From the IMG/VR virus record IMGVR_UViG_3300013105_000843, positions 1 through 64,000 of that record: a stretch of 64,000 nt of DNA. The stretch is one strand, 5' to 3'. Position numbers and translations under genes: made by a program. The stretch comes from a virus. Taxonomy: Duplodnaviria; Caudoviricetes. How positions within the stretch are numbered: the first letter of the stretch is position 1; each line of letters begins with the position of its first letter. The notes below the pieces were generated by a model. It was not told where the DNA came from. It did no database searches and saw nothing but the letters and a program-made list of their open reading frames with translations. Below are positions 6,536 to 18,875 of this stretch, piece by piece.

Positions 6536-7467
6536 GACCCCACCCTTTCCGCGCTGGTCAAACCGTCACCGCTGCGGAGTAGCCGAATTGCCCGCCCAAC
6601 GAGTTGAGCGTCGCTGACGAAGCCCCAATAGCGGCTGTCGTCGCTGTTGTCGCGGTTATCGCCCATCATGAAGTAATGACCAACCGGGACCTTGCAGGAG
6701 AAACCCGAATCAAAGTAGCGGCAGTGTTCCTGGCCAGCAAAACTCTGGACACCTTCCGGCAGGTAGACGGGGGAGCCCGGTATCTCGGCCGCGAGGTAAT
6801 TCGAGCCATCCAGCTGCTCGCGGAACAGCGTGACCGTGAGGCTCCCTCGGTGCTCGTCGGTGTAACGGAATTCCCCTGCTCGCTCATGCGGCACGGGAAC
6901 GCCATTGATGGACAGCCGCTTGTCTCGATACGTGACGACATCGCCGGGCAGGCCCACGGCGCGCTTCACGAACACCTCGCTGTCGTTACCAGGGAAGCGG
7001 AACATGACGATGTCGCCTCGGTGCACAGACCCGGTGCGGAGAAACACGTGCCGCAGAAATGGCACGTGCACTCCGTAGGCGTGCATGTTGACCAGCCACG
7101 CGTCGCCAGCGGACATCGCCGGCCGCATGGAGCTGGATGGCACGTACATGTAATCGACGATGAATATACGGAAGAGCGTGAGCGCAACCAGCCATGGCGT
7201 GGCGCTGCGTACCAGGCTGAAGAGGGGCGGAGCCGAAACATGGTCCAGCCGACGACGCGAGAGGATGAGCCGGTCAAGCAGGTAAAGCGTGACCAGCAAC
7301 AGGACGAAGCCAGCGAGCACATCGGTCAGGTAGAACCAGTGCGTCAACGCGGCGCCCAAGCCCCAGGCGAGGAGGCAATAGCCGACCATCTTCCTGCTAT
7401 TCGTAGCCGACATAGCGAGCGTGGTGCCCGCGAGGGTTGCTGCAGCCGAAATGAAGAAAATCAGCAT
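6532..7467 (-). CDS. lepB: Signal peptidase I
   Basis: N-terminal TM helices, VPSSSMRP, FVKRAVGLPGD, YFMMGDNRDNSDDSRYWGFV. The longer ORF-track start overlaps a tRNA. Confidence 0.93.
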   Translation of the reverse strand: MLIFFISAAATLAGTTLAMSATNSRKMVGYCLLAWGLGAALTHWFYLTDVLAGFVLLLVTLYLLDRLILSRRRLDHVSAPPLFSLVRSATPWLVALTLFRIFIVDYMYVPSSSMRPAMSAGDAWLVNMHAYGVHVPFLRHVFLRTGSVHRGDIVMFRFPGNDSEVFVKRAVGLPGDVVTYRDKRLSINGVPVPHERAGEFRYTDEHRGSLTVTLFREQLDGSNYLAAEIPGSPVYLPEGVQSFAGQEHCRYFDSGFSCKVPVGHYFMMGDNRDNSDDSRYWGFVSDAQLVGRAIRLLRSGDGLTSAERVGS

Positions 7468-7484
7468 CGTCTGTTCATAAATGA

Positions 7485-7571
7485 TGGTACCCAGAGAGGG
7501 GCTCGAACCCTCACGCCGTTGCCGGCACAGCGCCCTCAACGCTGCGCGTCTACCATTTCCGCCATCTGGGC
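7485..7571 (-). tRNA. tRNA-Leu(GAG)
   Basis: Cloverleaf, loop TT-GAG-GG, long V arm, encoded CCA. Confidence 0.93.
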
Positions 7572-7604
7572 AAAAAAGGCCGCTTGTCAGCGGCAAAAAT
7601 CATC

Positions 7605-7680
7605 TGGTGCCGGAGATAGGAGTCGAACCTACGACCTTCGCATTACGAATGCGCTGCTCTACCAACTGAGCTACGCCGGC
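7605..7680 (-). tRNA. tRNA-Thr(CGT)
   Basis: Canonical 76 nt, loop TT-CGT-AA, CCA. Confidence 0.95.
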
Positions 7681-7710
7681 GAATCCGGTCAGAAACCGGG
7701 GTAAATCTGG

Positions 7711-7788
7711 TGGTGCCGTCGGCGCGATTCGAACGCGCGGTCTCCGTCATACCAAGACGGCGCCTTAGACCAGCTGGGCTACGACGGC
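7711..7788 (-). tRNA. tRNA-Thr(GGT)
   Basis: CCGTC TT-GGT-AT GACGG, CCA. Confidence 0.92.
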
Positions 7789-7811
7789 GATGATGCAAAA
7801 TCCTGAGTTGC

Positions 7812-7988
7812 TTACAGCCTCTTCCACGCGCGCTTGGCGGCCTTGTCCTCCAGCTCGGCGGCCTTCAGTTGGGCCGCCGCATGCTGCAGGCGCTGCCACT
7901 GCGGGAACAACTCCGGCGTGACTTCCTTCAACACCTTGATGCGCGCGCGTGCTTTCTTAATCTGCTTGGCCAAGGACTGGTCCATCAT
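7812..7988 (-). CDS. Small hypothetical protein (58 aa)
   Basis: GGAGA RBS, MMDQSLAKQIKKARAR...KRL. Confidence 0.55.
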   Translation of the reverse strand: MMDQSLAKQIKKARARIKVLKEVTPELFPQWQRLQHAAAQLKAAELEDKAAKRAWKRL

Positions 7989-8321
7989 TCGTCTCCCGGC
8001 TGGTGCAGCAAGAACACAAGCCTGTCAATGAGTGCAGTATAACGCGCAATGCGTTAAACGCAACATCCAACAGGGTTGTGCAGCAGCCTGCTGCACAATT
8101 CACGCAGCCTGGGGACGGTCGGTGGGCTTGGCCGGCAGCAGATACTGGCGCGACGCCGCGAGGAATGCTTCGATGGTCTGCTTCATGCTGAATCTCCCTT
8201 TGTTATCAGCTTGATATCGTTGTAGGCGCGCGGCACCAACGGGCGTGATACCGGCCGATGTCGTTTGCGACACTGGTTGGTGGTTTCACGCCACTGAGAT
8301 TGCACGGCCGCGCGGGGAATC

Positions 8322-8397
8322 TGGTGCATCCTGGAGGCATCGAACCCCCGACCCTCGTCTTGTAAGGACGCCGCTCTACCAGCTGAGCTAAGGATGC
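8322..8397 (-). tRNA. tRNA-Val(TAC)
   Basis: Loop CT-TAC-AA, CCA. Confidence 0.93.
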
Positions 8398-8431
8398 AAA
8401 GAAGAAAACTTTGTACTACGAATAGAATTCA

Positions 8432-8548
8432 GGCAAAGACGTGAGGGATTCGAACCCTCCCTGCCCGCCCATTTCGCCGTGGCGTCGCCGGACAGCGACT
8501 CCCTCGGGTACTCCGGGCCGGAGTGCACAACCATGACACTTCGTCACC
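8432..8548 (-). ncRNA. tRNA-like RNA with replaced anticodon arm
   Basis: Perfect T arm GAGGG-TTCGAAT-CCCTC, D-like GTG-TCATGGTTGTG-CAC, bulged acceptor-like pairing, no anticodon loop or CCA. Confidence 0.5.
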
Positions 8549-8630
8549 ATCAGGCTGGCATGTCCGCGCCCACCTGAAGTCCTGAAACCTGTGGCGTATC
8601 GAGCGCCTTGCTGTCTCGGTTACAGCCAAT

Positions 8631-8720
8631 TGGCCGAGAGCCAGGGAGTCGAACCCTGTGACCTCGTTTCCGAAGCCTACGGATTAGCAATCCGCTGCAT
8701 TACCATCCTGCCCGCTCTCG
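8631..8720 (-). tRNA. tRNA-Ser(GCT)
   Basis: Loop TT-GCT-AA, long V arm, G73, CCA. Confidence 0.92.
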
Positions 8721-8732
8721 TCGTTAAAATCG

Positions 8733-8809
8733 TGGTGGAGAAAACGGGACTCGAACCCGTGGCCCCCGGATTATGAGTCCGGTGCTCTAACCAGCTGAGC
8801 TACATCTCC
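8733..8809 (-). tRNA. tRNA-CAT (elongator Met or Ile2)
   Basis: CCGGA CT-CAT-AA TCCGG, CCA. Met versus Ile2 cannot be resolved by eye. Confidence 0.88.
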
Positions 8810-8825
8810 AGGTACTGCGAATTCT

Positions 8826-9053
8826 TCAATCCTCGCCAATGTCCTGGAACAGACGTCGTTCCTGCATCGTGCGCTCGAGGAAGTATTTGCGGGGATTGCC
8901 GCACATCGCGCACGAACATCGTGCCGCGGTCGTGACGGTAATCCCCAGTTCGACCGGGCTCTGCGCGAGGTCCCTGCCGAAGTAATGCCGGCGGTTATGT
9001 TTCAGCCGCTCGATATGGTGGCGCCGAAGCGCGCGGGTCATGGGCTTGGCCAT
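8826..9053 (-). CDS. Small basic hypothetical protein with CSCxMCGNPR motif
   Basis: GGAGA RBS, 75 aa, Cys cluster. Confidence 0.75.
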   Translation of the reverse strand: MAKPMTRALRRHHIERLKHNRRHYFGRDLAQSPVELGITVTTAARCSCAMCGNPRKYFLERTMQERRLFQDIGED

Positions 9054-9182
9054 ACAGTCTCCGTAGAGTGTCGGCCGCCAGCTGTACAGGACCCTCCTGC
9101 ACTCTTATACGCTGACGGCCGGTCGTATGACCGCAGCCGACCAGTAATTCCGCACGTCAATCTCCCACGGACTACTGAAAAA

Positions 9183-9258
9183 TGGTGGAAACGACGGAAT
9201 TCGAATCCGTGACCTCCGCAATGCGAGTGCGGCGCTCTCCCAACTGAGCTACGTCCCC
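9183..9258 (-). tRNA. tRNA-Ala(CGC)
   Basis: G3:U70 pair, loop CT-CGC-AT, CCA. Confidence 0.94.
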
Positions 9259-9271
9259 AAGCAAGAAAATC

Positions 9272-9347
<76 letters not shown>

Positions 9348-9407
9348 AATGAGCCTTTGCGTACTGTGAAAAAACAACGCGGCGCAATGGCTTTGAAACG
9401 GTTGTTC

Positions 9408-9499
9408 TGGCGGAAAGGAGGGGATTCGAACCCCTGTAGGACATCGCTGCCCTCATCTGCATTCCAAGCAGCGCCATTCGACCTCTCTGGCACCTTTCC
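9408..9499 (-). tRNA. tRNA-Ser(GGA)
   Basis: Loop TT-GGA-AT, long V arm, GCCA end. Confidence 0.92.
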
Positions 9500-9506
9500 A
9501 TAAAAA

Positions 9507-9623
9507 CTGTTTCAGCGCCGGCCCCTGCGCAACAGAGTTCAGGTCTGTCCGCTTGAGCCCATCCGATTTCAGCAAAGGCCTACTGGATTCGGCCCCGCCT
9601 ACGTCCAACCGACGCCTACTCCG
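9507..9623 (-). ncRNA. Unclassified structured RNA, CGGAGUAG...UGAAAC family, copy A
   Basis: Conserved end motifs flanking stem GCGUCGG/CCGGCGC. Confidence 0.65.
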
Positions 9624-9629
9624 AAATAC

Positions 9630-9706
9630 TGGTTGCGGGACGCGGAATTGAACCGCGTATCTTCAGCGTATGAAACTGACGGGGTAACCGGCTCCCTCTA
9701 CCCGCG
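9630..9706 (-). tRNA. tRNA-Met(CAT) with initiator-like acceptor stem
   Basis: CGCGGG...CCCGCAACCA (C1:A72), loop TT-CAT-AC. Confidence 0.85.
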
Positions 9707-9764
9707 AAGCGTTCGTGCTTCGTTGCAAAAGCACTTTGGTTTGGGTAAAACCGAAATGCTCTCG

Positions 9765-10935
9765 ATGGTGTACAGGCCTGAGACTACAGCCTGACGCGTC
9801 ACGACTTTCGAGCGGATTATCACGCGGCTTGCGGCCGGCGTTCCCACCTTGTCCACCCCGTCAAACGAGGTATCGTGACATGGCTGCCGTTTCGGGTTTC
9901 CCCAGGGAAGGCGGTCTCCCTGTCGCGATGCACTATTCGATTCTCGTCCTACCGCCGACCTTGCGAGCCGTTCGAGGTTGCAGCCTCTACGTGCGGATTC
10001 CAATCAACATCCTTCACCTTGCGGGCGTCAGACGCCTGCCTTCACGTTTCCGTGGACAGGATTAAGCCATTTTCATGCATCACCGGACACGGCTTTGCGT
10101 TTTTTGACAACGAGGATTTGAACCCCACCGTCGGCTTAAGAGGCCGATGCTCTACCGAATTGAGCTAATTGCATCCACTGCCACGAGCGTGTCCAAGAGC
10201 TTCACCACCTTTTGAGCGGCAAAATACTCCTCGCGGCATGTCTTTCGCCTGCCGGCTACTCAACGGTCCTTCTGGACTCCGTGCCATTTCTGGCCCGAAC
10301 CCCATTGAACTGCGCTGTCGCCATTGAGGGCATCTACGACAACAGCGCTACCCTTTCCCGTACAGGTTCGCATGTTGGTTAGGCTGGACCGCGGCACCAC
10401 CCGCTGCTGTTCGCCACCTCGGGTTCCCGTCCTTGCGGACGGCCCGGCAGGTAACGTTCTTCCCCAGCCACATGCTTCTCCCTTATCGCCACCGCTTTGG
10501 TCAGTGACGCGCTCCTTTCGGAGCCGGGGAGGCTTGCATGGATTGACCGCACCGGTCCCCGAAGAGACCGGCATGGCGCGAGTTAGTGGACTACCTCGCT
10601 TTGACCGCATTGCTGCGGCTGTCCTCCCCATGCGGAGTTGTCAGTGTCTCGCCGCGCAACGTGCAAGCACGCTACCCGGCCAGCATCGACGCGTTGCGGA
10701 GCCTTTCGGACTGGGCGCCTTACGGAACCCCACCGCATACGAGCTGACGTCGTCGAATCCTTGTTCTGCCAGACCGTCTCCGGCCGCACGCTCAACCTTC
10801 ACCGCTGTCCTGGTGCGCTGTCTTTCGACACGGGCCTCCTTTCGGTTAACCCAAGCGTGACGGGTGTTGTCTGCCGGGCCAGAACCCGACGGCGCAGCTG
10901 AAGCATCTGACGATGCACAATCGGGCACCGCCCGA
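9765..10935 (-). ncRNA. Very large structured ncRNA, GOLLD-like, with an embedded tRNA-Lys(CTT)-like element (10105-10174)
   Basis: About 1.15 kb with no credible ORF, dense GNRA/UUCG hairpins and its own promoter. The 3' part resembles recalled GOLLD motifs. Boundaries are approximate. Confidence 0.65.
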
Positions 10936-10945
10936 AAGAGAATGC

Positions 10946-10973
10946 AGTATAGCATTATAAATGTCGATGTCAA
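10946..10973 (-). promoter_or_regulatory. Sigma70 promoter for the large ncRNA and distal tRNAs
   Basis: TTGACA-N16-TATACT with extended -10 TG. Confidence 0.8.
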
Positions 10974-10992
10974 CACATTTACAATGAAATGT

Positions 10993-11069
10993 TGGTCGGC
11001 GTGACAGGCTTCGAACCTGCGACCTCGTGCTCCCCGAGCACGCGCTCTACCTGACTGAGCTACACCCCG
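10993..11069 (-). tRNA. tRNA-Pro(GGG)
   Basis: CGG...CCGACCA acceptor, loop TC-GGG-GA (atypical C33). Confidence 0.82.
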
Positions 11070-11077
11070 ATGAAACC

Positions 11078-11157
11078 TGGCCTCCCCGACACGATTCGAA
11101 CGTGCATGCGTCCATTTAGCCTTTCGACGGCTTCGGAGGCCGAGGGCATACGGGGAG
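11078..11157 (-). tRNA. Atypical tRNA-Arg(CCG)-like RNA with no D arm in the normal position
   Basis: 7-bp acceptor with GCCA, perfect T arm, CGGC-CTCCGAA-GCCG. A D-loop-like segment lies 3' of the anticodon arm. Confidence 0.65.
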
Positions 11158-11165
11158 AGCGAAGA

Positions 11166-11258
11166 CTGTTTCAGCGGCGCGACTCCTCAGCCCCAAATGG
11201 CTGGCCGCCCGGGAGGTTGCTGGTCCCGGGCGCGCGCGTTTTCACGCCGCCTACTCCG
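11166..11258 (-). ncRNA. Unclassified structured RNA, CGGAGUAG...UGAAAC family, copy B
   Basis: End motifs plus stem GCGGCGUGA/UCGCGCCGC. Confidence 0.65.
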
Positions 11259-11311
11259 ATATGCGTTGCTTCAGACCCACGCTGCACGTTGCCGGCGCGA
11301 AAGGCGAAAAG

Positions 11312-11401
11312 CAGTTTCAGTGGCCTGAGCATTTAACCAGCGTTCCAGGCTGGGGCGGCAGGAGGTTGCAATTCTGTCGCGGCATCAGTCCACCTACTCC
11401 G
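11312..11401 (-). ncRNA. Unclassified structured RNA, CGGAGUAG...UGAAAC family, copy C
   Basis: End motifs plus stem GUGGACUGA/UCAGGCCAC. Confidence 0.65.
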
Positions 11402-11407
11402 ATGAAT

Positions 11408-11493
11408 CTGTTTCAGCATCCCGGGGTGACCGACAGCGTTCAAGGCCGGCGGCCGCACGGGCATGGAGCCCGCGTCCCGAGATGCCTACTCCG
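11408..11493 (-). ncRNA. Unclassified structured RNA, CGGAGUAG...UGAAAC family, copy D
   Basis: End motifs plus stem GCAUCUCGGG/CCCGGGAUGC. Confidence 0.65.
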
Positions 11494-11514
11494 GTTGTTC
11501 GTTGCACTGCTCTG

Positions 11515-11600
11515 CAGAGGGGGCGGGATTCGAACCCGCGTGGCCTTTCGACCCATCCGCTTTCGAGGCGGCGCCGTTCGACCAGCTCCGGCACCCCTCT
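11515..11600 (-). tRNA. tRNA-Ser(CGA), CCA not encoded
   Basis: Loop CT-CGA-AA, long V arm, G73. Confidence 0.9.
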
Positions 11601-11654
11601 GCACAACAGTGCGTACATGGTGCCGCGCGACACATGACGCGCGGCCCTTTTGAT

Positions 11655-11743
11655 TGGCGGAGAGCGGGTGCATTCGAAGCCCATCCGGTTGCCCGGACCC
11701 TCGGTGTTCAACGCCGCGCCCAGCCCTGCCGGGTTCGCTCTCC
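11655..11743 (-). tRNA. tRNA-Ser(TGA), atypical, possible 8/4 structure
   Basis: 8-bp acceptor GGAGAGCG/CGCTCTCC, 6-bp D stem, loop GT-TGA-AC, long V arm, GCCA. Confidence 0.7.
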
Positions 11744-11803
11744 AGAAAACTGCAAAAAAGAGACCGCTCGTGAGCGGTCCGTGAGACATCTTTGTGCGCC
11801 AGG

Positions 11804-11983
11804 CTATGCGCCGTGAGGCAGCAAGGCGCGCGCAGGAACGGTCATGCGCTTGCCGACACCTGCGTCATCGACTCGCTCCACTGTCCACGTCGCCTGCCCG
11901 CAGTACGGCTCACTGGGTACGACCGTACGTACCAAATGTCCAGACTTCGTGAACCGGTAGGTCTTGCCGGGCTCAATCTTCAT
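11804..11983 (-). CDS. Small hypothetical protein (59 aa)
   Basis: MKIEPGKTYRFTKSG..., overlaps the upstream stop. Confidence 0.55.
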   Translation of the reverse strand: MKIEPGKTYRFTKSGHLVRTVVPSEPYCGQATWTVERVDDAGVGKRMTVPARALLPHGA

Positions 11984-12263
11984 GCCGCGTCTCGCTGCTG
12001 GAAAACCGCGCGGCCAGGTCGCACAGCCACTTTTCCTGCGGCTCGCTCAGCGGCACGCCAGTGTTCAGGCGATACTCGCAGCTGCGAATGAAGCTGCGCT
12101 CGCGGGAGCTGAGCTGCTCGTCTTTGTCGACCAACACCCTGAGCCAGCTTCGATGCTTCTCTTCGAGTGCCTGGGCAGCCGCCGCAGCAGCTTCCTGCTC
12201 ACGTCGCACCTTCGCCTGGTGCTCCGGGTCCATCAGTTTCGAAAAATCGATTTTGAATGCCAT
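11973..12263 (-). CDS. Hypothetical protein
   Basis: GAGGA RBS, LSSRERSFI...LSEPQEKWL. Confidence 0.7.
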   Translation of the reverse strand: MAFKIDFSKLMDPEHQAKVRREQEAAAAAAQALEEKHRSWLRVLVDKDEQLSSRERSFIRSCEYRLNTGVPLSEPQEKWLCDLAARFSSSETRHED

Positions 12264-12352
12264 GTGTGTCCTCTCGGGTGGATATGCCACCACGGTATAG
12301 GCACACCGGCGCGCGACTCGAATTCGAACCGCGCGCCGGCGGGCATCAATGC

Positions 12353-12928
12353 TCAGTTGAGCAGCAGGCGCGAGTGCCTCGGCAGCTGCGCGGCCAGGTA
12401 CTCGTGCTGGTCGGCCAGCACGTTGCGTCCCGACAGGATGAAGTGCTCGGCCCGGTTCGGTACGTACGGCAGGAACAGCAACGGCCGGAACTCATGCACG
12501 GGCTTGTCGCGCTTCGCCTGGTTGCAGTCGAAGCACGCAGCCGTGCAGTTCATCCATGTGTCCGCGCCGCCCGCAGCACGCGGGACGATGTGGTCACGCG
12601 TGAGCTGGTGCCGCGGAAACCGGACCCCGCAGTAAGCGCAGGTGAACCGGTCGCGCTTGAACAGCAGGTCGTTGTCCCGCGGGCTGAGCGGCAGCTCGTG
12701 CCGCAGCCAGCGCGCCGAGACTTCGCTGCCGGCAAGCGCGATAATCGGCTTGACCGTGATGACCGACGATACGCCGAGGCGCGAGGTGCCGCCGCGAAAC
12801 ACGCGTTGTGCGTCACCCAGCTCCCAGGCTACTTTGCCCTTCGCGTACGCCTTCACGGCGTCCTCGGGTGTGAGCCAATCGAACGGCTGGCCCGAGAGGT
12901 TGAGCACCAACACCTGCTGAATCTGCAT
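12353..12928 (-). CDS. HNH endonuclease
   Basis: RDRFTCAYCG, TRDHIVPRAAGG, NCTAACFDCN. Confidence 0.93.
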   Translation of the reverse strand: MQIQQVLVLNLSGQPFDWLTPEDAVKAYAKGKVAWELGDAQRVFRGGTSRLGVSSVITVKPIIALAGSEVSARWLRHELPLSPRDNDLLFKRDRFTCAYCGVRFPRHQLTRDHIVPRAAGGADTWMNCTAACFDCNQAKRDKPVHEFRPLLFLPYVPNRAEHFILSGRNVLADQHEYLAAQLPRHSRLLLN

Positions 12929-13002
12929 GATAGTCCCCTAATGCATACGTTTCCGAAAGAGGTAGTAGAGAAGTCAAGCCGCTTCCCTGGTCGGCATGAA
13001 GG

Positions 13003-13089
13003 TGGTGCCCGACGTCGGACTCGAACCGACAAGTGCCTCGCGGCGCCTGTTCTTGAAACAGGTGCGTCTACCGATTCCGCCAGACGGGC
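13003..13089 (-). tRNA. tRNA-Leu(CAA)
   Basis: Loop TT-CAA-GA, long V arm, CCA. Confidence 0.93.
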
Positions 13090-13274
13090 AATGGCGTCGG
13101 CTCTTCCCCGACACGCCGCTTCCTGCTGAAAGCGCGGATGACTCGCCTGCAGTTCCTTTTACGTCGCGCAGGTCTAACAGCCCGAAGGCTCGACGTCATC
13201 GCATCCGGGTACGCTGCGCGCAGCCAGTACGAGCTTCTCGTACAGACTGGAAAGAACGTACACGGAGCAATGCG

Positions 13275-13361
13275 TGGTACCGAAGGTGGGACTCGAACCC
13301 ACATGGCCTTGCGGCCACCTGCTCCTGAGGCAGGCGCGTCTACCAGTTTCGCCACTTCGGC
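13275..13361 (-). tRNA. tRNA-Leu(CAG)
   Basis: Loop CT-CAG-GA, long V arm, CCA. Confidence 0.94.
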
Positions 13362-13366
13362 ATTGT

Positions 13367-13442
13367 TGGTCGGTGCGACCCGATTCGAACGGGCGACCCC
13401 CTGGCCCCAAACCAGGCGCGCTACCAGCTGCGCTACGCACCG
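13367..13442 (-). tRNA. tRNA-Pro(TGG)
   Basis: Loop TT-TGG-GG, CCA. Confidence 0.94.
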
Positions 13443-13662
13443 ATAGAAGATATCTGCCGGGTCCGCGAGAGCCTCTATCCCGCGCTCTTACCTCAAGTCC
13501 GCGCACGCTCATGCGTGCCGACCAGAGGGCCGTTACTGCTACTCGGCAGACAGAAAATCGTGGGCTGCTTAGGCCAGCCAATCCGCAGGTTACGGGTTCC
13601 TGCGTTCCGCCCTATCGTTGCGGTTCGGTTTATCGCCGCGCAGGTGCTGCGCCGCGGGGTTA

Positions 13663-13778
13663 TGGAGGAGACGGCAGGGCTCGAACCTGCGACCACGCGC
13701 CAAACCAAGTGCGGACGTTAGCGCCGAAGCGCAGGGCGCCGCACAGGGGCCGTGCTCTACCGACTGAGCTACGTCTCC
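13663..13778 (-). ncRNA. tRNA-like RNA whose anticodon arm is replaced by a long UUCG-capped stem
   Basis: Perfect acceptor, D arm, T arm and UCCA end. Insert GTGCGG...GCGC-TTCG-GCGC...CCGCAC. Confidence 0.75.
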
Positions 13779-13788
13779 AGCTGGATAC

Positions 13789-13865
13789 TGGTCGGGGCGG
13801 TGGGCATCGAACCCACGACCTTCGGATTAAGAGTCCGCTGCTACTGCCAGCTGAGCTACACCCCG
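13789..13865 (-). tRNA. tRNA-Lys(CTT)
   Basis: Loop CT-CTT-AA, CCA. Confidence 0.92.
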
Positions 13866-13869
13866 GTTG

Positions 13870-14395
13870 TTGTTGGGTATGGCGTTGGTGCCGGTTCGAC
13901 CCGGCGGGCACGCGCAGCGAGAGCGTAGGAACTGAATCTACGTGTGCAGCTGCGACGCATCGGATTCCCTGCCCTTGCTACTCCAGTCCATTCACCTGCC
14001 ACCTTTTCCGGTCGGCAACAGATTTCCGTGTCGTTTGGCTTGGCAACCAACAATTCAGCCGACTGCTTCACCCCTTTCGCTCGCGCGCGCTAATCAGGAT
14101 GGAACCCGCATCTGTTCGGATGTGCCTGCGGTCAGCGCCTCGGCAATCGACTGAATTGTTGGATGACGTGCGCGATGGTTTGCGGCCACTACGGCTTGCA
14201 GCTTGCCTGCCAGCATGAAGCTTCCGATTCGCGGGTGTCAGCTTCCGAACCTGAGATGGTCGAGGCAAGACGTTTCGTCTGCCGCCATCACCCACCGGGG
14301 AAATCGACCCCGGCTCCTACTCCGGCATTCATCGTTACCCCCGGCGGGCAGAGCCACGTTGAACACCCGTGTGGCGGGGCCTGGACTACAGGCTT
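13870..14395 (-). ncRNA. Large structured ncRNA, ROOL-like
   Basis: About 525 nt non-coding interval between tRNAs, with a 20-bp stem (14047-14066/14143-14162). Segments resemble recalled ROOL motifs. Confidence 0.5.
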
Positions 14396-14401
14396 GGCAA
14401 C

Positions 14402-14477
14402 TGGTGGAAACGACGGGATTCAAACCCGCGACCCCCTGCTTGCAAGGCAGGCGCTCTCTCAGCTGAGCTACGTCCCC
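14402..14477 (-). tRNA. tRNA-Ala(TGC)
   Basis: G3:U70 pair, loop CT-TGC-AA, CCA. Confidence 0.92.
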
Positions 14478-14538
14478 AATGTCCTGGCGCATACGTTTGT
14501 GCAGCTGCTGCACGCGTGTATGCGTCAAGTTGTGAAAC

Positions 14539-14616
14539 TGGCTCCCCAGGTAGGGCTCGAACCTACCCGCTCCGGATTAACAGTCCGGCGCTCTACCATC
14601 GATGAGCTACTGGGGA
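14539..14616 (-). tRNA. tRNA-Asn(GTT)
   Basis: Loop CT-GTT-AA, GCCA. Confidence 0.93.
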
Positions 14617-14625
14617 ATTGAAACC

Positions 14626-14868
14626 TCAAGCGACTGGCGGTCGCGTCGCGACGCCATGCGTTTGATGTCTCAGATGGTGAGGGCGGAGAGGCTCGAACTC
14701 TCGCCGACCGGGTAAAAGCCGGTTGCTCTGCCCGTGAGCTACACCCTCGAGTGCCACCTTGTCGGCACGACGCTGCGCCTTGTGAGGCTTGTCGTGCGCG
14801 CCCGCTTTCTTGAAGAGACTGGCGACCACGAACGGGTTGCGTGGTGCCAGCTTCGGTTTTCGCTTCAT
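14626..14868 (-). CDS. Small basic protein whose frame runs through tRNA-Lys (40 codons precede the tRNA)
   Basis: GGAGG RBS, ATGA coupling to upstream ORF, MKRKPKLAPRNPFVVASLFKKAGAHDKPHKAQRR. Confidence 0.65.
   Translation of the reverse strand: MKRKPKLAPRNPFVVASLFKKAGAHDKPHKAQRRADKVALEGVAHGQSNRLLPGRREFEPLRPHHLRHQTHGVATRPPVA
14675..14748 (-). tRNA. tRNA-Lys(TTT)
   Basis: Loop CT-TTT-AC, CCA. Confidence 0.9.
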
Positions 14869-14990
14869 GCGACCTCCGTGTGCTTCATCATGTGCCTGCC
14901 CAGCGGCCGACGCCGGCTGGCGCGCGGCGTGCGCGCGTTCAACCGGCTCAGCTTCCGGGTCGGCAGGTCAATATGCTTGTGCTTTCGCAT
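14865..14990 (-). CDS. Small basic protein, truncated paralogue of the upstream ORF
   Basis: MRKHKHIDLPTRKLSRLNARTPR...MKHTEVA. Confidence 0.55.
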   Translation of the reverse strand: MRKHKHIDLPTRKLSRLNARTPRASRRRPLGRHMMKHTEVA

Positions 14991-14996
14991 AGCCGC

Positions 14997-15182
14997 TCAG
15001 GCGACCTCCGACGCCTTCATCGTGCACGGGCCGTGCTTGCACCCGCAGTTTGCGCATCGCTGGCCGACGCCTACCTTGTAGGCGTCGCAGCGGCCGCACC
15101 AGAACAGGCCCTTGCGGGGCGTTCGGGCGTTGAGCCGATTGAGCTTCCTTGTCGGAAGCTCGGTGTGTTCATGCAGGCGCAT
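14997..15182 (-). CDS. Small zinc-ribbon protein
   Basis: GAGGAG RBS, WCGRCD...CANCG. Confidence 0.65.
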   Translation of the reverse strand: MRLHEHTELPTRKLNRLNARTPRKGLFWCGRCDAYKVGVGQRCANCGCKHGPCTMKASEVA

Positions 15183-15210
15183 TACGCTGCTCCTCATCGA
15201 AGAGACCGCT

Positions 15211-15288
15211 TGGGGGTGGCTGGTGAGACTCGAACTCACGCATGAGAGGGTCACAGCCTCTCGCCTTACCCCTTGGCGACAGCCACCC
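15211..15288 (-). tRNA. tRNA-His(GTG)
   Basis: G-1:C73 pair, loop CT-GTG-AC. Confidence 0.93.
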
Positions 15289-15298
15289 CGAAACAGTC

Positions 15299-15628
15299 TC
15301 AGTTGCGCTCGAGCAGTTTCGCGGCGAACCGCTCGAACTGTTCGTCAGCGATGAAGTCGTCGCCGGGTTCGACCGCCTCGATTGCGAGGAACACATCGAA
15401 GACCTTTTCGTCGACGGGATGCCTGATGCGCTCGAGGAAACGCTGGCTGAACTTTACGCGCCAGTGGATGAAGCACTGTGCCGGTGCGTGCCAGCGCGCG
15501 ACGCGCGCATTGCGGCAGCGGCCGCGGTAGTAGCGCCCGTGCTCGAGCTGCTCCTTGCGCAACAGGCCGGCCGCATAAGCGGTGTCCATCTGCTCCGGAG
15601 ATGGGTCTGCGGGTAACCGGAACAGCAT
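15299..15628 (-). CDS. Hypothetical phage-like protein
   Basis: AGGAGG RBS, YYRGRCRNARVARW motif. Confidence 0.75.
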   Translation of the reverse strand: MLFRLPADPSPEQMDTAYAAGLLRKEQLEHGRYYRGRCRNARVARWHAPAQCFIHWRVKFSQRFLERIRHPVDEKVFDVFLAIEAVEPGDDFIADEQFERFAAKLLERN

Positions 15629-15647
15629 GGACGCCTCCTTGCGAAAG

Positions 15648-15724
15648 TGGTCTCCGAGACAGGGATTGAACCTGCGGCCTCCGCGTCCCGAACGCGGCGC
15701 TCTCCCAGACTGAGCTACTCGGAG
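15648..15724 (-). tRNA. tRNA-Pro(CGG)
   Basis: Loop TT-CGG-GA, CCA. Confidence 0.92.
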
Positions 15725-15737
15725 AATGGATAATCAA

Positions 15738-15815
15738 TGGTGCAAGGTCCTGGAATCGAACCAGGTTCTACGGATTTTCAATCCGTCGCTGAATCACCAG
15801 ACTAGCTCACCCTGC
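15738..15815 (-). tRNA. tRNA-Phe(GAA)
   Basis: Loop TT-GAA-AA, CCA. Confidence 0.9.
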
Positions 15816-16591
15816 ATGAGTCGTTCGTAAGCATCTTTCTCGACAACAACTATCCGCTTATCCGGATGTTGCTCCCGCACAAGCTGCATCTTTCGTCGGT
15901 CATTGCCCCACCAGAAGCCCTTGATTTCAAGGTAGAGCTGCTGTTCTGCCAAATAGAAATCCGGTGTGTACGTGCGGTGTTTGCCGTCCATCACGTAGAC
16001 CAAGACGTCACGGTGGGTTCGAAGCTTCGTCCACGCGATTCCCAACGAGGACAACATCAAACCCACATTCCGTTCCCAGGTGCCTTGAACCATCTGTCCG
16101 TCGACCAGATACCATCTGCATCGACCACCATGGTTCTTGACAGAGCGGGCAAGGCTCAACTTCTGGCGCAGCTCCAAAGAGTGGGTCTTTCCCGTGAAAC
16201 TCGGAATGACTTCCCCTGCGGCAATCCGCGCAGCGAGAGTCGCACCAAACTTCGCGACGCGTTCGTCGGTGTCTTTGGTGCGGCCGTGATTCCACGCCTT
16301 ACGGCCCTCGTTGTAGCGTGAGCCTGGCGCGGTGCCTAAGTGCTGTTGCCCTTCGACGGTGTGAGCGCGCCATGCATGTGCAACCACGGCGTTTTTGCTG
16401 CCTACGAAGGAGCATTCGCGACATTGGAACTCGTCGTCGTGCTGCACCCAGGTTACGGCTGCCGCTTTGCTCGCTTCGTATTCCGCCCAGGCCTGTGGGC
16501 CGTGCGCTTTTATGTGTTTGTGCAATCCGTTTGACTTCTTCTCCACGCCACAAACGGGGCAAGCCGCTGTCGTGTAGACATACTTTGGCAT
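15794..16591 (-). CDS. Putative homing endonuclease (Zn fingers, NUMOD3-like region, PD-(D/E)xK domain)
   Basis: CPVC...H...H, CREC...H...H, AWNHGRT, FTGKTHS, YTPDFYL...LEIKG. Lower GC than flanks; stop codon lies inside tRNA-Phe. Confidence 0.8.
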   Translation of the reverse strand: MPKYVYTTAACPVCGVEKKSNGLHKHIKAHGPQAWAEYEASKAAAVTWVQHDDEFQCRECSFVGSKNAVVAHAWRAHTVEGQQHLGTAPGSRYNEGRKAWNHGRTKDTDERVAKFGATLAARIAAGEVIPSFTGKTHSLELRQKLSLARSVKNHGGRCRWYLVDGQMVQGTWERNVGLMLSSLGIAWTKLRTHRDVLVYVMDGKHRTYTPDFYLAEQQLYLEIKGFWWGNDRRKMQLVREQHPDKRIVVVEKDAYERLMQGELVW

Positions 16592-16617
16592 ACGAGGTCG
16601 CCTCACGATGCATTGTT

Positions 16618-16692
16618 TGGTGTGCGATAGGGGAATCAAACCCCTCTTCCCTGGGCGAAAACCAGGTGTCCTAGTCGATAGACGAATCGCAC
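16618..16692 (-). tRNA. tRNA-Glu(TTC)
   Basis: Loop TT-TTC-GC, CCA. Confidence 0.87.
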
Positions 16693-16740
16693 GATGAAAC
16701 AGGTTGCTGCTGGCCAGACCGTGATGAAGGCCAGCGGTGT

Positions 16741-16847
16741 TGGTGCGCAGCGGAAGGAACCGAACCTCTTGCCCATAGGGAACCGGGTTACGGTCGGCCG
16801 AGAGGGCAAGCAGCCACAACATCAGCTCGCCCATATTGGCGCCGCGC
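16741..16847 (-). tRNA. Atypical tRNA-Tyr(GTA)-like RNA with greatly enlarged D arm
   Basis: 8-bp acceptor with ACCA, GGGCGAGC/GCTTGCCC hairpin, loop CC-GTA-AC. Confidence 0.55.
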
Positions 16848-16853
16848 GAAAAT

Positions 16854-16931
16854 TGGTGGGGGAGGCAGGATTCGAACCTGCGAACGCCCTGGCTCAGAAC
16901 GGTGGCTTGGACCGCTTGCACTCACTCCCCT
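16854..16931 (-). tRNA. Degenerate tRNA-like gene, possible Gln(CTG)
   Basis: Good T arm and CCA, but unpaired anticodon stem around TT-CTG-AG. Confidence 0.45.
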
Positions 16932-16947
16932 ACAGGAAAACACATTG

Positions 16948-17020
16948 CATGGCAGGAGGGCATCGAACCCCCAACCTTCGGTTTTGGAGACCGGCGCTCT
17001 GCCAGTTGAGCTACTGCCAT
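16948..17020 (-). tRNA. tRNA-Trp(CCA), CCA end not encoded
   Basis: Loop CT-CCA-AA. Confidence 0.92.
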
Positions 17021-17051
17021 GCAATGTGCTTTTTTCGGTACTACGAATTAC

Positions 17052-17128
17052 TGGCAAGGGCGGAAGGATTTGAACCTTCGACACGCGGAATCAAAATCCG
17101 CTGCTCTACCGGACTGAGCTACACCCCC
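17052..17128 (-). tRNA. tRNA-Gln(TTG)
   Basis: Loop TT-TTG-AT, GCCA. Confidence 0.92.
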
Positions 17129-17158
17129 ACGGACAACGATGCTGCAATGAGCGCTTCG

Positions 17159-17244
17159 TGCGTCGAGCTAGATTCGAACTAGCGTGGCCACGTCGTGACA
17201 ACAGATTTACAGTCTGCCCCCTTCAGCCTCTCGGGCATCGACGC
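17159..17244 (-). tRNA. tRNA-Tyr(GTA), CCA not encoded
   Basis: Loop CT-GTA-AA, long V arm. Confidence 0.92.
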
Positions 17245-17274
17245 ACGAAGCGCTCACTACAGGTACATCAAATC

Positions 17275-17350
17275 TGGTACGTCCAGCAGGACTCGAACCT
17301 GCGACCCCCGCGTTCGTAGCACGGAACTCTTCCAACTGAGCTATGGACGT
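17275..17350 (-). tRNA. tRNA-Arg(ACG)
   Basis: Loop CT-ACG-AA, CCA. Confidence 0.93.
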
Positions 17351-17374
17351 ATTGTTGCGGATACAACGAAAATA

Positions 17375-17473
17375 TGGAGCCGGGATGCAGACTTGAACTG
17401 CGTGGGCGACGCCTGGGCTCCAAGTCGACGCTCTTATTGATTCGTACCGGCAGCCAGACCGGACTCTCCCGGC
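17375..17473 (-). ncRNA. tRNA-like RNA without a recognisable anticodon arm
   Basis: Acceptor GCCGGGA/TCCCGGC-TCCA, T arm GCAG-TTCAAGT-CTGC, non-canonical interior. Confidence 0.6.
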
Positions 17474-17486
17474 AAACAACGAAAAC

Positions 17487-17562
17487 TGGAGCGGGAAACG
17501 AGCTTCGAACTCGCGACCTCCACCTTGGCAAGGTGGCGCTCTACCAACTGAGCTATTCCCGC
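17487..17562 (-). tRNA. tRNA-Gly(GCC)
   Basis: Canonical, loop TT-GCC-AA, TCCA. Confidence 0.96.
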
Positions 17563-17580
17563 GGTGTACTGCGATGAAAC

Positions 17581-17656
17581 TGGCCGCCGACGAAGGGAAT
17601 CGAACCCTCATGGAACGGATAGACAATCCGCTGACCTACCAATGGCCCACGTCGGC
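17581..17656 (-). tRNA. tRNA-Asp(GTC)
   Basis: Loop TT-GTC-TA, one extra G before CCA. Confidence 0.85.
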
Positions 17657-17691
17657 AAAATCTGCACTACTAATAAAGCAATTTTCAATGC

Positions 17692-17766
17692 TGGAGTGCC
17701 CCACCGGAGTCGAACCGGTCTGAGTCGGATTTGCAATCCGGCGCCTGGCCGCTCAGCCAGAGGCAC
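17692..17766 (-). tRNA. tRNA-Cys(GCA)
   Basis: Loop TT-GCA-AA, U73, CCA. Confidence 0.93.
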
Positions 17767-17778
17767 AGCGAAAACGGT

Positions 17779-17855
17779 TGGTAGTGGACGTAGGATTCGA
17801 ACCTATCTGCCTCTCGCTTATCAAGCGAGTGCTCATCCAGATGAGCTTGTCCACC
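17779..17855 (-). tRNA. tRNA-Ile(GAT)
   Basis: Loop TT-GAT-AA, CCA. Confidence 0.9.
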
Positions 17856-17883
17856 ACGGTGCAACGGTGCAACGGTGCAACGG
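17856..17883. repeat. 8-bp tandem repeat (ACGGTGCA)x3.5
   Basis: Directly visible in the spacer. Confidence 0.85.
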
Positions 17884-17895
17884 ACCAACGAAAAC

Positions 17896-17969
17896 TGGAG
17901 CGGGTATCGGGAATCGAACCCGAGTGTTCAGCTTGGAAGGCTGCTGCTCTACCATTGAGCTACACCCGC
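17896..17969 (-). tRNA. tRNA-Gly(TCC)
   Basis: Loop CT-TCC-AA, TCCA. Confidence 0.94.
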
Positions 17970-17984
17970 ATGGAAATCCTTCAT

Positions 17985-18089
17985 CGCTGCCCGCTGGATT
18001 TGAACCAGCGCTGACGGGCGCCCGCCACCTGGAATGGATACCAGTCTCCCTCTGCAATGAGGTGCTCTACCAGCCTGAGCTAGAGCAGC
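17985..18089 (-). ncRNA. tRNA-like RNA with 6-nt anticodon loop and two-hairpin variable region
   Basis: Canonical D and T arms, CCTC-ATTGCA-GAGG, extra hairpins, no CCA. Confidence 0.6.
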
Positions 18090-18105
18090 GATGAAGAATC
18101 GTGAA

Positions 18106-18183
18106 TGGTGCCGTCGGCGTAGATTCGAACTCGCGACCCGCCGCCTACAATGCGGCCGCTCTACCGGGCTGAGCTACGACGGC
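18106..18183 (-). tRNA. tRNA-Thr(TGT)
   Basis: Loop AT-TGT-AG, CCA, bulge in T stem. Confidence 0.88.
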
Positions 18184-18397
18184 AGTGGAAACTTCACTGT
18201 ATCACTTTGTAAAGCCACATCGTCAAGGATGAAGCTTTAAAAAGTGCGGAGGTTGTCCCTCCGCATGCCCATCTTACTCCTGCGTTTCCGCCGCAGTTTC
18301 ATACCGGGACCCCGCCCATTCGCCATGTTTTTTGCCGTGCTGGCTGCGGTCTCGTTCCGCATGACACGTTGTTAGCCTGGTTGCGCCACTGGGGCAG

Positions 18398-18438
18398 AAA
18401 AGCAAAAACCCCTGGGTGCTTGCGCATTCCCAGGGGTT
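18398..18438 (-). terminator. Attenuator terminator upstream of the tRNA array
   Basis: AACCCCTGGG...CCCAGGGGTT followed by TTTGCTTTT. Confidence 0.85.
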
Positions 18439-18463
18439 CCTTGAACCTTTGTGGATGGACTCT

Positions 18464-18646
18464 TTAGAAGATGCCCGTCCCCTCGGAATGCGCTGCGGCT
18501 GACTTACCCTCGCTGGGCTGATAGCCAAAGCGCGGTGCCGTCGACGCAATGATGGAATCATTCGACAACACGTTCTGCCCGCGCACGGCTGCACGCCACG
18601 CCATCGGCGCGGTACAGCCATTTTGGAGGTGCAGAGCGAGTTTCAT
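18464..18646 (-). CDS. Putative attenuator leader peptide (60 aa)
   Basis: AAGGA RBS; lies between promoter and terminator; 3' end contains the antiterminator sequence. Confidence 0.6.
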   Translation of the reverse strand: MKLALHLQNGCTAPMAWRAAVRGQNVLSNDSIIASTAPRFGYQPSEGKSAAAHSEGTGIF

Positions 18647-18706
18647 TTCGAACAATTCCTTCAATCAATTCGGTTAAGGTCCGACAAGTTGGACCCGATG
18701 TGAGCA

Positions 18707-18734
18707 AGTATAGCGAGCATTGGGCTCATGTCAA
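18707..18734 (-). promoter_or_regulatory. Sigma70 promoter of the tRNA array
   Basis: TTGACA-N16-TATACT. Confidence 0.82.
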
Positions 18735-18875
18735 CGCTCTCGTGCAAAAATTTTCGAACTATTTTCAGATTCAGGTAGGATGTTTAGGCTAACCCATTGA
18801 AATTGAAGCATAATTAACGAAGCGCGCCTGCTGTGAAATCTTCACAACAGGCGCACGGATTGAGGCTGTTCAGCT

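Follow-up and report, generated by a model that had tools for sequence, protein, structure and literature searches.

A rare family of small structured RNAs with constant ends and variable hairpins in mobile-element tRNA arrays

Four units of common design lie within a tRNA array

The DNA analysed here, referred to as the window, is a stretch of 64,000 nucleotides (nt), positions 1 to 64,000 of the IMG/VR record IMGVR_UViG_3300013105_000843, a 129.6-kb entry of the class provirus. It carries an array of 33 tRNA genes, all located by ARAGORN on the minus strand between 7485 and 18183, and a permuted tmRNA is also present. Between 9507 and 11493 lie four short units, named A to D here. A preliminary description, made from the sequence alone, had proposed them as copies of one small-RNA family, and we located all four at the positions given there, on the same strand as the 33 tRNAs. 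Each unit starts with CGGAGUAGG and ends with CUGAAAC(A/U)G. These conserved ends, the 5' and 3' handles, enclose a closing helix (P1) whose sequence differs from unit to unit, and the interior holds further hairpins (P2 and P3 in most cases). The features of the four units are as follows.

11408-11493, minus strand: unit D (86 nt), 5' handle 11493-11486, 3' handle 11415-11408
11485-11476 with 11425-11416, minus strand: closing helix P1 of unit D
11474-11456, minus strand: P2 hairpin of unit D
11448-11434, minus strand: P3 hairpin of unit D, 7-nt loop, like a tRNA-Ser(UGA) anticodon arm
11312-11401, minus strand: unit C (90 nt), 5' handle 11401-11394, 3' handle 11319-11312
11393-11385 with 11328-11320, minus strand: P1 of unit C, with one A.G mismatch
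11376-11359, minus strand: P2 of unit C
11353-11337, minus strand: P3 of unit C, 5-bp stem and 7-nt loop CUGGAAC
11166-11258, minus strand: unit B (93 nt), 5' handle 11258-11251, 3' handle 11173-11166
11250-11242 with 11182-11174, minus strand: P1 of unit B
11232-11206, minus strand: P2 of unit B, 9-bp stem and 9-nt loop
11203-11188, minus strand: P3 of unit B, 6-nt loop on a stem that matches a tRNA-Ile(GAU) anticodon stem exactly
9507-9623, minus strand: unit A (117 nt), 5' handle 9623-9616, 3' handle 9514-9507
9615-9609 with 9521-9515, minus strand: P1 of unit A
9586-9566, minus strand: internal hairpin AGUAG...UGAAA of unit A, a second, hairpin-capped copy of the handle motif
9549-9531, minus strand: P3 of unit A, 7-nt loop

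The joint pattern of both handle cores separated by 40-130 nt recovers the four copies, against 0.00-0.02 expected from dinucleotide shuffles. One extra match, at 51384-51324, is unrelated and lacks a closing helix. By itself, the heptamer GGAGTAG is found at 9 places in the window, where 3.1 are expected. The closing helices are 7-10 bp long and pair as the preliminary description had listed them, apart from a single A.G mismatch in copy C, where 8 of 9 pairs form; in the 3' handle of the same unit the eighth base is U in place of A. For B, C and D, and for A when its fold is constrained, RNAfold predicts the closing helix together with two hairpins. Of the anticodon-like 7-nt loops described earlier, CCUGAAC, CUGGAAC and CUUGAAC are real in units A, C and D, but the fourth falls within a 12-nt loop of the predicted fold, and unit B has none.

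The conserved ends fit a bulged-G module that closes a covarying helix

Homologues were searched for with a simple descriptor and then with two covariance models, R1 (built from 7 units) and R2 (built from 13 units). This recovered 17 units, including those of the window, in six related tRNA arrays that lie next to a gene for the conjugative coupling protein TraD. R2 found nothing beyond the 17 at E<1 in ~0.57 Mb of TraD-linked arrays. The units are distributed as follows.

This window: 4 units
L126, Logan contig, TraD 96% identical: 2 units
L125/L173, Paraburkholderia aspalathi (GCA_016621965.1): 3 units
L137, Paraburkholderia sp. EG287A: 1 unit
L139/L172, JGI (Joint Genome Institute) soil contig: 4 units
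L133, Novimethylophilus kurashikiensis La2-4 (contig NZ_BDOQ01000007, ~50.3-50.7 kb): 3 units

The handle is identical between the Burkholderiaceae and Novimethylophilus. AGUAG at the 5' end and GAAAC at the 3' end are invariant in all 17 units. The pair outside the motif, G2-C7', is likewise kept in 17/17; the base preceding the unit is a pyrimidine opposite G in 15 of them. Base 1 is mostly C opposite A; of the five units with another base there, four have it in a Watson-Crick pair with base 8'. On the inner side the motif is followed by a G.U (12 units) or G-C (5 units) pair and then by G-C (15) or A-U (2). The bulged-G module, also known as the sarcin-ricin or loop E motif, has as its consensus AGUA opposite GAA with a closed helix on either side. 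As the preliminary description had stated, the unit ends, with AGUA facing GAA and pairing on both sides, agree with this consensus, and they do so in 17/17 units. Assigned by consensus, the two invariant ends thus fit a bulged-G module. It is closed on the outside by a G-C and a pyrimidine-G pair and on the inside by G.U or G-C, followed by a covarying helix of 7-11 bp.

Covariation supports the fold strongly. In the 17-unit alignment, which was fitted to the model, pairing in P1 stands at 95%, with compensatory changes at 9 of its 10 pairs. Across the full set of 21 pairs, 89% of cells are paired; sliding the 3' partner by 1-3 columns lowers this to 29-48%, and not one of the five observed measures was attained in 500 shuffles. 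Compensatory changes between orthologues are also seen in P2 and P3. Since the 24 G.U cells in the P1 table would turn into A.C on the opposite strand, the fold is specific to the tRNA-sense strand, which argues for RNA. Together, these data demonstrate a conserved, strand-specific, covarying RNA fold within tRNA transcription units, and the notion of a structured RNA with a constant handle and a variable payload, put forward for four copies, is borne out by the larger alignment, as is the expectation that a model built from the copies would find covarying homologues.

The same module, with AGUA opposite GAA and flanking canonical pairs, occurs in helix H95 of 23S rRNA, in loop E of 5S rRNA and in the central region of PSTVd (potato spindle tuber viroid). 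It is a recurrent three-dimensional motif that defines no family, and in the units it lies at the very ends and lacks the GAGA tetraloop that is recognised by ribotoxins and elongation factors. In PSTVd the loop E motif adjoins the processed termini. 5S rRNA likewise has ~120 nt, paired termini, a three-way junction and a loop E, but its loop E is in an internal arm, whereas that of the units is a terminal clamp and their number of arms varies; RF00001 gives no match to the units at E<=10. For PSTVd, a loop E-type motif in the central region is described in PMC6633198.

The units occupy gaps between tRNAs and form a rare, uncatalogued family

All 17 units lie on the tRNA strand and fill gaps between tRNAs or other units, with 2-20 nt to their neighbours; their lengths range from 65 to 171 nt. 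Novimethylophilus, for example, has the series tRNA-Ser, unit, tRNA-Gln, unit, unit, tRNA-Arg. Synteny holds among units of one type: those of D or B type follow tRNA-Ser(cga) in five arrays, and those of a further type, E, precede tRNA-Ala in two. Unit D scores 77-84 bits in cmsearch; its orthologues stand straight after tRNA-Ser(cga) in L126, L125 and L172 and carry compensatory changes. Unit B has orthologues in L126, L125/L173 and L137. Unit A scores 60-63 bits, and no orthologue was found at the matching position in P. aspalathi.

Beyond these arrays the searches were negative. No further members were found in the remainder of the Novimethylophilus and Achromobacter anxifer arrays. The Variovorax tRNA megaplasmid gave only noise of 16-18 bits, away from its tRNAs, and blastn with the B-C-D block gave no match among INPHARED phages or PLSDB plasmids. 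The model found no match in 151 Burkholderiales genomes, a weak negative with 29 candidates scored per genome. The exact-handle pattern occurs in at least 120 stretches of IMG/VR; all those fetched lack a closing helix and were rejected as chance matches.

The preliminary description did not recognise the RNA as a named family, and the catalogues agree. In the window and in Novimethylophilus, none of the 4227 models of Rfam 15 matched the units at its gathering score or gave a meaningful match at E<=10. The overlaps at that threshold are noise: RT-2 reaches 16 bits (cut-off 40), and sX4 reaches 29.5 bits (cut-off 70), mostly on tRNA-Ser. Literature searches returned no description of these RNAs. 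The units form a genuine and rare family of small structured RNAs that is uncatalogued, being found in no catalogue or paper.

Several known classes were considered and rejected. The two conserved ends are not complementary, and pairing is confined to the variable inner helix, which differs from integron attC sites and from cassette ends of the miniature inverted-repeat transposable element type. Judged against consensus structures of general knowledge, the units are not hammerhead, hairpin or other self-cleaving ribozymes, having no conserved interior, nor K-turns or C/D boxes, for which the strand geometry is wrong. Type III antitoxin repeats were set aside as the units are not tandem-identical. 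For T-boxes, retron msr and IscB omega RNA, there was no Rfam match and no partner genes were seen.

Some payload hairpins are built like anticodon arms

The interior of the units consists of one hairpin (the unit at the head of the L139 array), two (most units) or four (Novimethylophilus units N2 and N3). In several of them a 5-bp stem carries a 7-nt loop, as in an anticodon arm. The D-type P3 hairpin is conserved in four arrays and differs at three positions from the chromosomal tRNA-Ser(UGA) arm of A. anxifer (closing pair U-A to C-G, and A38 to C). tRNA-Ser(UGA) itself was not found by ARAGORN in any of the arrays examined for it (window, L173, L172 and L133), where serine anticodons gct, gga and cga are present. 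The D-type unit beside tRNA-Ser(cga) bears a Ser(UGA)-like anticodon arm. Other loops include CUGGAAC (Ser-GGA type), CUCAUAA (Met type), CUGUGAA (His type) and CUGCAAC (Cys type).

The units were compared with 287 distinct anticodon arms of the arrays. Five of the 17 contain a 17-mer within 2-3 mismatches of an array arm (empirical p<=0.02 each), and the remaining 12 do not stand out. The pattern Y32-U33-NNN-R37 fits 5 of 11 independent 7-nt loops against ~6% expected, in a post hoc count. We conclude that several hairpins are built like, or copied from, anticodon arms of the Ser-UGA, Ser-GGA, Met-CAU, His-GUG and Cys-GCA types. The earlier suggestion of an anticodon-like payload therefore holds for part of the hairpins, but not for all of them.

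The units share strand, transcription units and spacing with the tRNAs of phage and plasmid arrays, and some of their hairpins share anticodon-arm geometry and sequence. Unlike tRNAs, they have no acceptor stem or CCA and mostly no D or T arm. ARAGORN and RF00005 detect 33-37 true tRNAs and none of the units, even at E<=10, and the unit folds consist of the handle with 1-4 hairpins; an identity as tRNAs was rejected.

The host element, neighbouring genes and candidate partners

Next to the array lie genes for a TraD/TrwB-type coupling protein, GyrB and GyrA. The closest TraD proteins are encoded on 0.4-0.67-Mb contigs of P. aspalathi, Paraburkholderia sp. EG287A and Burkholderia ubonensis, and close relatives also occur in N. 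kurashikiensis and A. anxifer; TraD of the Burkholderiaceae and of Novimethylophilus is 64% identical. The gene order gyrA-gyrB-(traT)-traD-tRNA-array is common to each close relative, and no TraD relative was found among IMG/VR viral contigs. Because traD, gyrB and gyrA adjoin the array, traT is present in relatives, the kin lie on 0.4-0.67-Mb contigs and no viral relative was found, the source looks, from its gene content, like a large conjugative element of Betaproteobacteria (a megaplasmid or an integrative and conjugative element), despite the provirus label. The element carries a full tRNA set, a release factor, tmRNA and GOLLD RNA. tRNA-carrying megaplasmids have been described in Variovorax (PMC7313664), and the present element resembles them; the Variovorax TraD is 53% identical. 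Other features around the units, and in related arrays, are listed below.

11514-11600, minus strand: tRNA-Ser(cga), the gene directly followed by D-type or B-type units in five arrays
11078-11157, minus strand: tRNA-like element between unit B and tRNA-Pro(ggg), not a family member
10973-10946, minus strand: sigma-70-like promoter, TTGACA, 16 nt, TATACT with extended TG
9775-10239, minus strand: conserved 3' domain of GOLLD RNA (RF02032), 189.6 bits, the RNA between units B-D and unit A
9706-9630, minus strand: tRNA-Met, one neighbour of unit A
9499-9408, minus strand: tRNA-Ser(gga), the other neighbour of unit A
~89,474-91,550 of the same record (G000; L175:1-2079), outside the window, minus strand: Rnl2-type RNA ligase gene (361 aa, PF09414, 91 bits) and the HD/AAA_33 gene that follows it
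L125:16553-17095; L138:16378-16923; L139:18201-18797; L140:15883-16431 and 18202-18816: AlkB-like genes, PF13532

The near-consensus promoter stands ~730 nt upstream of the GOLLD domain matched by Rfam; judging from this distance, GOLLD RNA in the window is probably ~1.2 kb long and transcribed from its own promoter. The tRNA-like element at 11078-11157 shows stronger conservation across four arrays than its true tRNA neighbours, and long stretches of its alignment are invariant. In Novimethylophilus, ARAGORN reports a tRNA with anticodon tta (L186:19112-19187; G001:C7, ~74.1 kb), ~9 kb past the preceding array tRNA, which is a possible ochre suppressor.

The RNA ligase gene is followed by one whose product combines HD and AAA_33 (P-loop kinase) domains (the two together at ~89.5-91.6 kb), and by its domain content the pair looks like a cassette for RNA end-healing and sealing. 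RtcB was not found. In Novimethylophilus and A. anxifer, too, the contigs that encode TraD bear RNA-ligase-family genes; the ligase occurs in elements with and without units and is therefore not specific to them. AlkB-like 2OG-Fe(II) oxygenase genes (PF13532) lie within the tRNA arrays of several relatives, which suggests that repairing alkylated RNA belongs to the same tool-kit. An open reading frame (ORF) within the array of the window, at 15794-16921 on the minus strand, matches phage endonuclease I at its C-terminus (PF05367, 8.5e-11). A gene for an HNH_5 endonuclease lies at 12353-12928, minus strand; it accompanies the units in the Burkholderiaceae, and a scan of 13 plus-strand array ORFs (>=70 aa) in Novimethylophilus did not reveal it.

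Discussion

What the units do is a matter of graded likelihood. Our preferred, tentative reading, which we hold to be nearly as likely right as wrong, is that they are decoys, or non-chargeable mimics of tRNA. They would be transcribed within the polycistronic tRNA-array transcript of the element and freed by the cuts that also mature the flanking tRNAs. The terminal clamp would provide both a nuclease-resistant end and a constant docking surface. Acting in trans, the units could then offer their anticodon-arm-like hairpins to anticodon nucleases, from host defence or competitors, or to modification enzymes, and as decoys or sponges they might complement the element's own tRNA set and RNA-repair genes. 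Phage tRNAs have been argued to counter anticodon nucleases, and the tRNA-repair and anti-tRNase theme of the element agrees with that work (PMC10264068). A bolder version, which we regard as quite unlikely, is that the handle is a dedicated maturation and docking module, whose helix and loop E keep both ends next to each other, and that the units are loaded on a protein of the element or circularised by its own Rnl2-type ligase, giving long-lived RNAs whose displayed anticodon arms would titrate out anticodon nucleases delivered by host defence or rival bacteria.

Several observations weigh against the decoy reading. Anticodon-like loops are not universal: the B-type P3 stem resembles tRNA-Ile while its loop is different in every orthologue, and E-type and head-of-array units have no such loops. 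Some of the likeness to tRNA arms may simply reflect descent from fragments of tRNA genes. The family is sporadic, with no units in the arrays of L127/L128, L138 (B. ubonensis), L140 or A. anxifer (whole array), and none in 24 metagenome TraD loci (24 of 28 such loci were scanned with the first model, 17 of these with the second, and all 28 with the descriptor script). Unit C, as a precise block of 96 nt, is present in the window and cleanly absent from L126, although the TraD proteins of the two are 96% identical. The sporadic distribution and this indel imply that the units are dispensable. No partner protein was identified, and the presence of the ligase, the HNH gene and GOLLD does not track the units. 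Finally, we infer the expression, ends and stability of the units from their sequence.

The strongest competitor holds that the units are cis-acting processing or insulator spacers, which let each tRNA fold independently and provide defined sites at which RNase E, RNase P or exonucleases enter or halt, the excised RNA having no function of its own. The tight packing between tRNAs, the U-rich stretch that often follows the 3' handle, and the dispensability and variable number of the units all speak for such a role. It would, however, leave most tRNA junctions in the same arrays without a spacer, and neither a non-Watson-Crick module that is invariant in 17/17 units nor payload hairpins kept by compensatory change between orthologues would be needed for it. 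We consider it unlikely.

Docking on giant RNAs, an idea of the preliminary description, would make the units cargo or partners of GOLLD or a neighbouring large RNA, held through GGAGUAG. GOLLD shares with the units the niche of mobile-element tRNA islands, as do other large RNAs of this kind, and it neighbours them in four of six elements (window, L137, L172 and Novimethylophilus). It differs in size (>800 nt against 65-171 nt), and the two have no common model and no strict co-occurrence: L127 has GOLLD and no units, whereas P. aspalathi (L173) has three units and no GOLLD within 20 kb, so that GOLLD is not an obligatory partner. The string CCGGAGUAG noted earlier does exist at 14325-14317, and GGAGUAG recurs at 14323-14317 and 13984-13978, but neither occurrence has a closing helix of the family type. 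The label of ROOL-like RNA given to the region near 14320 did not hold up, since there is no ROOL or other Rfam match at E<=10 there, nor a ROOL match at that threshold anywhere in 7000-19000. The region 13866-14401, minus strand, is a gene-free stretch of ~530 nt with no Rfam match at E<=10. Docking of this sort appears very unlikely.

The units might instead be cassettes at the level of DNA, with the handles as recombination or target sites that move the payload and the fold incidental or formed in single-stranded DNA. The presence or absence of unit C amounts to a precise indel with the 3' handle at its boundary, and the number and position of units vary between arrays. The two ends are not inverted repeats, though, conservation follows the consensus of an RNA tertiary motif with G.U pairs specific to the tRNA strand, and no integrase or transposase is consistently adjacent. 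Deletion between short direct repeats of the handle would explain the indel, and from its boundaries recombination between handles probably adds or removes units. A cassette function is thus very improbable.

We find it even harder to regard the units as functionless remnants of decaying tRNA genes or as recombination scars. Several hairpins do resemble anticodon arms, and degenerate tRNA-like genes are common in these arrays, but hosts of two families share an unvarying handle, compensatory substitutions between orthologues are present in P1, P2 and P3, and most units show no trace of acceptor ends or T arms and no match to the tRNA covariance model at E<=10.

The nearest analogue in plan is YrlA-type Y RNA (RF02553), which is likewise small and modular, has paired ends with a conserved recognition motif, mimics part of a tRNA and is not chargeable. 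In modular plan, the units have paired termini carrying a conserved protein-type motif, and N2 and N3 have four hairpins loosely like D, anticodon and T arms; most units have just two hairpins. The handle is a bulged-G module rather than the Ro-binding bulged helix of YrlA, the units mimic anticodon arms with a varying number of hairpins whereas YrlA mimics the D/T elbow, and, unlike YrlA, they are located in tRNA arrays of conjugative elements. The models of YrlA and Deinococcus Y RNA (RF02553 and RF01053) match no unit and only weakly match genuine tRNAs. No TROVE/Rsr gene (PF05731) was found in the 129.6-kb record, which is weak evidence as the record is itself part of the element. That the units are Y RNAs whose stem is bound by a Ro/Rsr protein is scarcely credible.

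The tRNA arrays of mobile elements are now seen as counter-measures against tRNA-targeting immunity and toxins, and their non-tRNA RNAs (GOLLD, ROOL and tRNA-like genes) are unexplained. The units add a small and tractable member to this set, with an unusual plan that combines an invariant terminal tertiary motif with a free payload that is repeatedly shaped like an anticodon arm. Three carriers are cultured (N. kurashikiensis La2-4, P. aspalathi and Paraburkholderia sp. EG287A), so that expression, ends, partners and protection from tRNases can be tested directly. If the units are processing spacers only, they would amount to a modest new RNA motif. If the handle is a portable stability or docking module, it would be a useful RNA scaffold. 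And if it serves for maturation and docking as outlined above, the units would represent an RNA-only class of counter-defence on conjugative megaplasmids, and a natural scaffold for arbitrary hairpins.

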